Part shown: one piece after another, positions 3,997-6,090 of the stretch
How positions within the stretch are numbered: the stretch's first letter is position 1
Layout of the letters: each line of letters begins with the position of its first letter
From: a bacterium
Lineage (GTDB): Bacteria; Patescibacteriota; Minisyncoccia; Moranbacterales; UBA2206
DNA: 55,417 bases
Reading direction: 5' to 3'
Assembly: GCA_021788105.1 (NCBI GenBank)
Contig: JAJYKZ010000003.1
Location: forward strand, 1 to 55,417
The notes under the pieces: model-generated
Database searches by the model: none
What the model saw: the letters and a program-made list of their open reading frames with translations, nothing else
Told to the model about the DNA's origin: nothing
Translations under genes and position numbers: made by a program

Positions 3997-5277
3997 ATGT
4001 CCGAAGTCCAAAATCAAAATCAAAATGAAAATGTAAATAAAAATATTCAGGTCCATACCATGGCCGAAGATTTGAAGGAACTCGAACATCCTCAAAAAAC
4101 CGAACCGCGAACTTCCAAACCAAACGTCGCAGAAAAAGTCTCGCAATCAAAACCCGCCCAATTGACCGAGGAACAAAAAAATAATCCTTTTTTAAATCCG
4201 GATTTTAAAATTTCACCACTGGCACCTCAAAAAGACAGTGCAACACTGACGGAAACAACAAAAGAATCTGCAAAACCTGTTGCAACTCCCAATATTCACG
4301 ACGTCAAATCAAATAAATCCGCGCCGACTCCAGCCAAAAACGCTTCTCATTCTGCCAATAAAATTCTCTTTGCGGCAATCATAGCAATAATCATTTTAAT
4401 TATCGGAGCGGGAACTTATTATTTCATCGCCACAAAAAAACAACCTGCACAAACAACACAAAACACTGCTTCAAATCAAAACCAGCAGCAAACATCCGAC
4501 CAAAACCAGGCTTCCCCTCAACCGCAAAACAATACCCAAGACCAATCTCATAACAACGCCCCGACCGCCGATTCAAATAGTGCCGTGTACTCTGCCACCA
4601 ATCCGAATTACATGAATATCGACATTGCCAATGCCGATGGAGTTGCGATTAAAAATACCATCGATCAATACGCCCATAACGTTTCTGCTTCCAAAGCGAC
4701 CGCACCGATCGAATTTTCCGTCGTCGATCTGCAAAATAATCCGATATCTTTTTCCACTTTTGCCAAAAAAATTGGACTTGATCTTTCTTCTGCCGTTATG
4801 AGTGATTTGGGGGATGATTTTAGTTTGTATATATACAACGATCAATCTAACACCAGATTGGGATTGATTGTTAGTGCCAAAAATCCAACTGGTTTAAAAA
4901 CCGCCCTTCTAACCGAAGAAAAAACTTTGCCGTCAGATTTACAAGCATTATTCTTAGACTCCGATTATTCCATTAACAGTGGAAAAGTTTTTGCCTCCAG
5001 CGCTTATGACGGAGCTGATGTCCGCTATGAAAACATCGTCTCTCCCGAAGATTTGTCGGTTGATTACACGGTTTTCAACAATTCTCTGATGATCGGAACG
5101 ACTGAAATGACTTTGCGGGCGATGATTGATAAAATTTCTTCAGCGAACATTCAAACAAATCAAGACAACACCTCCGCATCAATGCCCTCTTCTTCCGCTA
5201 ATCAAGCTGGCGCAACTTCCAACACAACGACGACAACCACAAATACCGATTCAACTTCTGCAATAAGCACAAATTAG
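3997..5277 (+). CDS. Single-pass membrane protein with low-complexity N-terminus and an extracellular domain
   Basis: One hydrophobic segment ILFAAIIAIIILIIGAGTYYFI; Q/N/T/S-rich linkers. Confidence 0.8.
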   Translation: MSEVQNQNQNENVNKNIQVHTMAEDLKELEHPQKTEPRTSKPNVAEKVSQSKPAQLTEEQKNNPFLNPDFKISPLAPQKDSATLTETTKESAKPVATPNIHDVKSNKSAPTPAKNASHSANKILFAAIIAIIILIIGAGTYYFIATKKQPAQTTQNTASNQNQQQTSDQNQASPQPQNNTQDQSHNNAPTADSNSAVYSATNPNYMNIDIANADGVAIKNTIDQYAHNVSASKATAPIEFSVVDLQNNPISFSTFAKKIGLDLSSAVMSDLGDDFSLYIYNDQSNTRLGLIVSAKNPTGLKTALLTEEKTLPSDLQALFLDSDYSINSGKVFASSAYDGADVRYENIVSPEDLSVDYTVFNNSLMIGTTEMTLRAMIDKISSANIQTNQDNTSASMPSSSANQAGATSNTTTTTTNTDSTSAISTN

Positions 5278-5286
5278 CACATAACC

Positions 5287-5295
5287 TGTGGATAA
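5287..5295 (-). promoter_or_regulatory. Perfect DnaA box
   Basis: TGTGGATAA, the reverse complement of TTATCCACA. Confidence 0.5.
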
Positions 5296-5441
5296 CTTGG
5301 TGAAAACTCTGATTTTGGGATAAAAATAGAAAAGAAAATTACTTTTTAAAATTTAATTTAAGAATAATTTTTGTCAAAAGTTCTCCGCAAATAATTTTTT
5401 GGCAAAAACTCCAGCAAATTGAAAGATTGAATGAAAGATTG

Positions 5442-5470
5442 TTGACTCATGCTTATTTTTTTGCTATAAT
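5442..5470 (+). promoter_or_regulatory. Near-consensus sigma70 promoter with extended -10
   Basis: TTGACT (5442-5447), 17 nt spacer, TGc-TATAAT (5462-5470). Confidence 0.85.
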
Positions 5471-5476
5471 GGGTGT

Positions 5477-6055
5477 ATAGTGAACATTGAAAATGAAATA
5501 ACGGAACGGTAAAAGAGTTTTCAATCGCAATTTCCCCCTATTTGCGGTTGAAAATTCTCTTACTGTTCAAGCGTATCGATCATTGCATCGATGCCGCTCC
5601 CGATTTCTGACCGGGAGACCCTAAAACAAAAACAAAAACTTGGGACCTACCCGGAACAGTTATTAAAAAATGACTGCTGCGGGTAGGATCCCAAAAATTT
5701 TTTCAAAATAAAAACAAAAAGAAAAAATTGAGTTCTTTAAACATTCAAAGGCGAAAGCCAGAGAATGGTAAGAGGAAAACATCTAAATAAGTCAGAATAG
5801 ATGTTAAAAAACAACATATACATGAAATTCATATGCATTATATAATTTGATGCCTACTCACCCGGGCTAAAATTATTCCGTGTCGTATGACAGTATATGT
5901 CAAAAAACTGGGGCATCGGTCCGTATTTATATATATTGGGGCTTAGATGCCCCGGTTACCATACCAGCCAGCCGGGAAAATATCGGCAATAGACAACAAA
6001 AACAAAAAACATTCGGCAATTCAGTTCTGGGCACCACGAAAGAGGTGTTTTTTTG
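5477..6055 (+). ncRNA. Candidate large structured non-coding RNA (~575 nt), unknown family
   Basis: Bounded by a promoter and a terminator; about ten helices, several with G-U pairs valid only on the + strand; A/C-rich single-stranded linkers; no credible ORF. Confidence 0.65.
6029..6054 (+). terminator. Intrinsic terminator
   Basis: gggcacc-acgaaaga-ggtgttt followed by a T run. Confidence 0.65.
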
Positions 6056-6090
6056 TTGGCAAAAATGATAGAATAAAATTAAATTTCACA

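Follow-up and report, generated by a model that had tools for sequence, protein, structure and literature searches.

The window analysed here, a 55,417-nucleotide stretch of a Moranbacterales genome, carries the gene order pnp - membrane protein - RNA - yraN - dksA-like - lspA - comM. This order is found almost everywhere in the lineage, and the position of the RNA upstream of yraN-dksA-lspA-comM is constant in ~100 loci. The membrane protein upstream has a low-complexity N terminus and a C-terminal domain. The RNA itself occupies the plus strand between this gene and yraN, and the coordinates of all features discussed are collected in Table 1.

An earlier reading made from the sequence only had proposed that a near-perfect promoter and an intrinsic terminator bracket a stretch with no credible open reading frame. 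Both parts of this proposal held. The promoter is the best match within 5440-6060 and scores 11/12 plus the TG extension, and the pattern TTGAC-N16-19-TAWAMT, or TTGAC-17-TGnTATAMT with the extended -10, was present in 129/129 loci reaching far enough upstream. The terminator is a stem at 6029-6050 followed by a T run, and a crude test recovered it at no fewer than 70 of 95 loci. Open reading frames overlapping 5477-6056 are short (31-62 aa) and unconserved. The plus strand of the region folded at -189 kcal/mol, with z = -11.1 relative to shuffles, compared with z = -5.2 for the minus strand. We conclude that 5477-6056 is very probably a stand-alone gene, representing an undescribed family of large structured non-coding RNA. 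The ends of its transcript, and the abundance that we presume for it, are predictions from sequence signals alone.

Directly after the terminator, the promoter of the yraN-dksA-lspA-comM operon is conserved, with the typical form GGTGTTTTTTTGTTGCCAAAAATGnTAnAAT. Because this conserved promoter directly follows the terminator, we regard the RNA as its own transcription unit and not as a leader. The -35 of the yraN promoter falls within the U tract of the terminator of the RNA, an overlap that is conserved across the order. On the upstream side, past the membrane-protein gene and ~150 nt before the -35 of the RNA promoter, stands the conserved word CTGTGGATAACTTGT (5285-5299), which contains one of only two perfect DnaA boxes in the whole 55-kb window. 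A perfect DnaA box was found at the matching relative position in 69/105 Moranbacteria loci, and DnaA may control the RNA gene from this site.

Table 1. Features of the RNA gene and its surroundings, numbered from the first nucleotide of the window.
Feature	Position	Strand	Description
Membrane-protein gene	3997-5277		426 aa, no Pfam match, one membrane span
DnaA box, perfect	5287-5295	-	TTATCCACA inside conserved word CTGTGGATAACTTGT
RNA promoter	5442-5470	+	TTGACT (5442-5447), 17-nt spacer, TGcTATAAT (5462-5470), extended -10
RNA gene	5477-6056	+	Inferred transcription start to end of terminator T run; conserved core 5477-5966
5' boxA-like element, single-stranded	5482-5494	+	GAACAUUGAAAAU; family consensus GAACAUUAAAAAC
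P1, long hairpin	5507-5565	+	95-99% paired, 9 pairs changed on both sides
X' strand, CUGUUC	5563-5568	+	Pairs with 5507-5509 (P1 base) or with X2 5763-5768
P2 hairpin	5571-5597	+	95-97% paired, 8 pairs changed on both sides
P3 hairpin	5598-5616	+	Loop AUUUCUGAC (5603-5611) supplies UCUGAC for the kissing loop
Linker GACCCUAAAACAAAAACAAAAAC	5617-5639	+	Conserved; near-invariant A and C columns
Lineage-variable inserted hairpin	5640-5694	+	Absent from most relatives; in ~12/57 sequences
A-rich linker	5695-5731	+	
Internal boxA-like element	5732-5741	+	GUUCUUUAAA; can also pair with AGAGAA 5760-5765
P5 mini-hairpin, GGC-loop-GCC	5750-5759	+	Invariant CCAGAGAAUGG follows
X2 strand, GAAUGG	5763-5768	+	Long-range partner of X'
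P6 hairpin	5780-5803	+	Loop GUCAGA (5791-5796) pairs with the P3 loop
P7, long interrupted helix	5815-5899	+	5815-5823/5892-5899 and 5830-5835/5884-5889
P8	5852-5855/5864-5867	+	Enclosed by P7; invariant CACCC in loop
P9, two-tier G+C-rich hairpin	5908-5955	+	A/U-rich loop; model R2, 11 pairs
Conserved GGUUACCAUACC	5954-5965	+	After P9
3' tail	5967-6028	+	Non-conserved; absent or unrelated in most relatives
Intrinsic terminator	6029-6056	+	CACC...GGUG stem (6029-6050), then U run
yraN-dksA-lspA-comM promoter	6056-6085	+	-35 overlaps terminator T run; -10 = TGaTAGAAT

Homologues of the RNA were present in 61/61 sampled Moranbacterales genomes; a DNA search detected 60 of them and a covariance model of the 5' domain (R1) the last. 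The same model found no match among 145 genomes sampled from other orders of the class. One copy of the exact P1 apex motif, CAATCRCRATTTCCCCCTATTTGYGRTTG, was found in each of 113 species-level genomes, of which nearly all carry the label Candidatus Moranbacteria or Moraniibacteriota. Within the Moranbacterales the RNA is universal, with one copy per genome. It takes up 0.05% of a ~0.9 Mb genome with almost no spare DNA, and this investment, together with retention in every genome of the order, argues for an important cellular role.

Measured from the start to GGUUUCCAUACC, the core of the RNA spans 340-560 nt in relatives, and length differences are due to optional hairpins at fixed sites (5640-5694, and a second one after GUUCUUUAAA) and to the non-conserved 3' tail. 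The hairpin at 5640-5694, which the sequence-only reading had drawn as part of the fold, is real, although only about a fifth of relatives have it. Those that do are scattered through the order, and in them its sequence (UUGGGACCUACCCGG...CGGGUAGGAUCCCAA) is unusually well kept, so that it may be a self-contained module.

The secondary structure was derived from RNAalifold and a mutual-information scan of 104 distinct sequences, which recovered P1, P2, P3, P9, the X':X2 helix, P7 enclosing P8, and a loop-loop helix between P3 and P6. Over 99 model-aligned sequences, P1 and P2 were 97.2% paired, compared with 77.2% in shuffles and 31-51% in slid controls, and changes on both sides were counted in 529 cells against 143 in shuffles. 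An 88-pair model was 82.8% paired over 57 full-length sequences, compared with 72.9% in shuffles, none of 500 of which reached as high, and with 36-48% in slid controls. These 57 sequences were aligned with MAFFT, and P5, P6 and P9 scored poorly there because the register slips; for P9, alignment A5 and model R2 provide separate support. P7 was 86-90% paired, with 13 of its 14 pairs changed on both sides, and its domain contains a UAUAAU-like single strand. Within P1, the stem 5522-5530/5542-5550 and a 13-nt C-rich loop, AUUUCCCCCUAUU (5530-5542), are invariant in sequence. The suggestion of an undescribed stable structured RNA of CPR bacteria was thus supported by homologues with covariation across the order.

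Two long-range contacts tie these hairpins together. The X':X2 helix (5563-5568/5763-5768) was 98.5% paired, and its pair 5567-5764 is U-A in 41 sequences and C-G in 15. The kissing loop between P3 and P6 (5606-5611/5791-5796) was 99.3% paired, with five of its six pairs changed on both sides; compensated forms comprised UUCUGAC/GUCAGAA (20 sequences), UUCUGAG/CUCAGAA (9), UUCUAAC/GUUAGAA (5) and UUCUGGC/GCCAGAA (1). In one genome (G009) the P6 hairpin is lost, and there the P3 loop is unrelated too. The fold is compact and pseudoknotted, X':X2 and the P3/P6 kissing loop joining P1-P3 to the central domain; the long helix P7 closes the 3' domain, of which the two-tier P9 is the last element.

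Strands around X' and X2 have more than one partner. The base of P1 (5507-5509/5563-5565) varies in a pairing-compatible way, pair 5507-5565 being C-G in 46 sequences, U-A in 6 and U-G in 5. UUCUUU (5733-5738) and AGAGAA (5760-5765) are pairable in 97% of cells, with no both-side change. The P1 base, X':X2 and UUCUUU:AGAGAA are mutually exclusive, and this competition suggests an ordered folding path or a switch.

Several of the helices drawn by eye in the sequence-only reading reappeared in the comparative fold. The rod placed at 5504-5568 is supported by covariation from 5507-5565 inward, and so are the helices at 5573-5594, 5597-5617, 5778-5805 and 5906-5917/5946-5957. The remark that G-U pairs fix the strand was correct, as illustrated by one P1 pair that is G-U in 85/98 sequences, and the A/C linkers described between domains proved to be conserved. 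From the helix proposed at 5742-5767, the GGC/GCC mini-hairpin (5750-5759) is kept; the outer part found no support, GAAUGG (5763-5768) pairing with 5563-5568. The hairpin at 5835-5853 was likewise unsupported, 5815-5835 pairing instead with 5884-5899. A junction closed by 5861-5868/5970-5976 had to be abandoned, as it showed neither conservation nor covariation and its 3' partner lies in the tail that most relatives lack. We also considered a local helix CAUUC:GAAUG and rejected it for the same lack of conservation and covariation.

The boxA element is defined as a word similar to GCUCUUUAACAA to which NusB-NusE binds in the nascent RNA. Two segments of the RNA had been noted to resemble the boxA of rRNA, a resemblance that was partly upheld. 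A loose pattern for the 5' element was matched in 99/104 relatives, and the internal word (GUUCUUU/GUUCUUUAAA) was exact in 88/104. Similar elements occur in the 16S leaders of three Moranbacteria, which carry GGCUCUUUACCAA, GUGAACUUUGACAA and GUUCUUUAAA. The strength of the promoter, the two boxA-like elements and their likeness to the 16S leaders of the lineage suggest that the RNA may be transcribed and folded in an rRNA-style, Nus-assisted manner.

We compared the region with known RNA families. None of the 4227 families of Rfam 15 matched anywhere in the window at the gathering cut-off, and a scan of the RNA region at E <= 10 returned chance-level hairpin matches only, the best sub-threshold one being a plastid 3' UTR hairpin (26.5 bits, cut-off 62). 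The models of OLE, ROOL, GOLLD and raiA matched the region neither at gathering nor at E <= 10, and our literature searches found no description of this RNA. The sequence-only reading had been unable to equate the RNA with tmRNA, RNase P RNA, 6S, SRP RNA, ROOL or OLE, in agreement with these results. RNase P RNA, expected once per genome, was rejected as an identity, RF00010 being silent on the region and the genome's own copy lying at C36:17418-17789 (124.8 bits). A tmRNA is recognised by its tRNA-like ends and tag reading frame; this identity was rejected as well, RF00023 being silent on the region and matching elsewhere, at C31:14313-14700 (140.5 bits), a copy missed by ARAGORN alone. As a separate observation on this assembly, six contig ends (the starts of C5, C8, C12 and C25 on the minus strand and the ends of C20 and C26 on the plus strand) share more than 120 nt beginning GGCTCTTTAACAAATAGTGTGTTGAATTAACATAAAGAGTGGG, which resemble the terminus of a mobile element present in multiple copies and breaking the assembly.

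SRP RNA, whose hallmarks are the helix 8 motif and the protein partners Ffh and FtsY, was considered since no SRP RNA was detectable: RF00169 and RF01854 matched neither the RNA region nor any of 26 genomes of the order. The protein partners are missing class-wide too, and the identity was rejected. No full match to the SRP54 GTPase domain of Ffh/FtsY was obtained in 13 genomes of the order, the sole trace being a partial P-loop match of 27.5 bits (G008); across 41 genomes of the class, no match reached E <= 1e-10, and a motif scan of the present genome for Ffh/FtsY agrees. Since the loss of SRP from Parcubacteria has already been published (Nelson and Stegen 2015, PMC4508563), the RNA is not a hidden SRP RNA.

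Beyond the order, the dksA-like gene could be placed in 28 further families of the class. In about 9 of the 28 it is preceded by a gap of 400-850 nt that is free of ORFs, and several of these gaps include a promoter and a terminator. Model R2, describing the two-tier 3' hairpin, matched inside four of these gaps on the correct strand, with E-values of 2e-4 (L164), 4e-3 (L162), 0.012 (L171) and 0.038 (L169). GTTCTTT was enriched in the gaps of other families (7 observed, 0.95 expected, P = 6e-5). Predicted promoter-to-terminator RNAs of 280-800 nt lie between the membrane-protein and dksA-like genes in several other families, and a diverged form of the RNA, with the 3' hairpin and the GUUCUUU element, appears to lie upstream of dksA in some of them. 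In many families the dksA-like gene is preceded by a homologue of the membrane-protein gene, whether or not a gap large enough for the RNA separates the two. Because this gene order persists in the class even where the RNA is missing, the neighbours are a poor guide to its function, and the membrane protein and DksA, considered as partners by adjacency, were rejected on the same grounds.

Most likely, the RNA is abundant and acts in trans. As to mechanism, we tentatively favour a housekeeping ribonucleoprotein scaffold or a sequestering RNA, a reading to which we give somewhat less than an even chance. Its invariant C-rich P1 loop and A-rich single strands would be likely docking sites for a conserved partner, and the three exclusive pairings around X' and X2 could provide a folding or functional switch. 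A search for the complement of the C-rich loop returned nothing notable in the genome, whose assembly is largely without rRNA genes, and a trans target of the loop was rejected, there being no conserved complement. A regulatory RNA directed at RNA polymerase, a highly expressed analogue of 6S or Ms1 binding the polymerase or the adjacent DksA/TraR-type factor, is quite improbable. 6S RNA is recognised as a ~180-nt rod with paired ends and a central bubble. The present RNA has neither rod, paired ends nor central bubble, and identity with 6S RNA itself was rejected, RF00013 being silent on the region even at E <= 10 and the fold being multi-domain with unpaired ends. What speaks for an analogue is the UAUAAU-like single strand in the P7 domain, the DksA-type gene near the RNA here and directly downstream in other families, and the lack of any RF00013 match in 21 genomes of the order. 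That absence is weak evidence, because the same search recovered only 5/10 bacterial controls (and 0/4 archaeal ones), and the adjacency of membrane-protein and dksA genes in the class is independent of the RNA.

The conserved promoter of yraN bears on a further reading, that of a cis-acting leader or attenuator in which a ligand- or factor-dependent choice of pairing would set read-through into yraN-dksA-lspA-comM. Its constant place before one operon, the mutually exclusive pairings and a terminator immediately preceding the operon fit such a device, which is nevertheless highly improbable: yraN has an independent, extended -10 promoter just past the terminator, and the alternative pairings, located 260-490 nt before the terminator, leave it uninvolved. 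The specific attenuator pairing that had been put forward, 5758-5767 with 6010-6030, fails as well, its anti-terminator partner lying within the non-conserved tail. At 340-560 nt with tertiary contacts, moreover, the RNA would exceed any leader known to us. The pseudoknotted kissing-loop architecture and invariant single-stranded nucleotides could instead be those of a ribozyme, or of an RNA-only homo-oligomer like ROOL, GOLLD or OLE; there is precedent for the latter, large ornate bacterial RNAs having been shown to form homo-oligomers (PMC12286853). We consider this the least probable of the readings, as no catalytic motif or cleavage site is recognisable and no similarity to ribozyme or ornate RNA models was found.

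The favoured reading, a ribonucleoprotein scaffold or sequestering RNA, can be extended to the class. The RNA might be the best-preserved branch of a Paceibacteria superfamily that would supply the RNA subunit of a housekeeping ribonucleoprotein so far unrecognised in these ultra-small bacteria without SRP, an extension that we regard as speculative and rather unlikely. Such a superfamily would be synthesised in an rRNA-type, Nus-assisted manner, possibly under DnaA control, and could act through strand exchange among X1, X', X2 and the boxA-like strand.

Bacterial RNAs that are both large and intricately folded are rare, and RNase P, tmRNA, OLE, ROOL, GOLLD and raiA each revealed new biochemistry or RNA architecture. 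The CPR accounts for a large part of bacterial diversity and has almost no cultivated members; an RNA machine shared by a whole lineage would offer a direct way into the unusual biology of these bacteria. Structure determination and pull-downs of partners have well-defined targets in the covarying kissing loop, the long-range helix and the invariant loop.

Among known systems, rRNA leaders with boxA resemble the RNA in their strong consensus promoter and in the boxA-like word that follows it close to the 5' end; the RNA has another such word, GUUCUUUAAA, at a more internal position. The RNA differs from them in having no rRNA downstream, a terminator after ~580 nt and a conserved fold of its own, and the boxA likeness is one of sequence resemblance. 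Like 6S and Ms1, it is presumed to be abundant, has its own strong promoter, is lineage-wide and lies beside the gene of an RNA-polymerase factor; unlike them, it has neither the rod shape nor the central bubble, exceeds them two- to threefold in length and matches no model. OLE (RF01071), ROOL, GOLLD and raiA differ from it by the lack of any match in sequence or structure to their models and by phylum, the present RNA belonging to the CPR. As OLE does with oapA, it adjoins a membrane-protein gene; unlike the neighbour of OLE, the protein here is single-span, has no Pfam match and sits beside dksA even where the RNA is missing. In general character it resembles these ornate RNAs, being in the range of 400-600 nt, single-copy and rich in helices and long-range tertiary contacts, with lineage-wide conservation and a transcription unit of its own.
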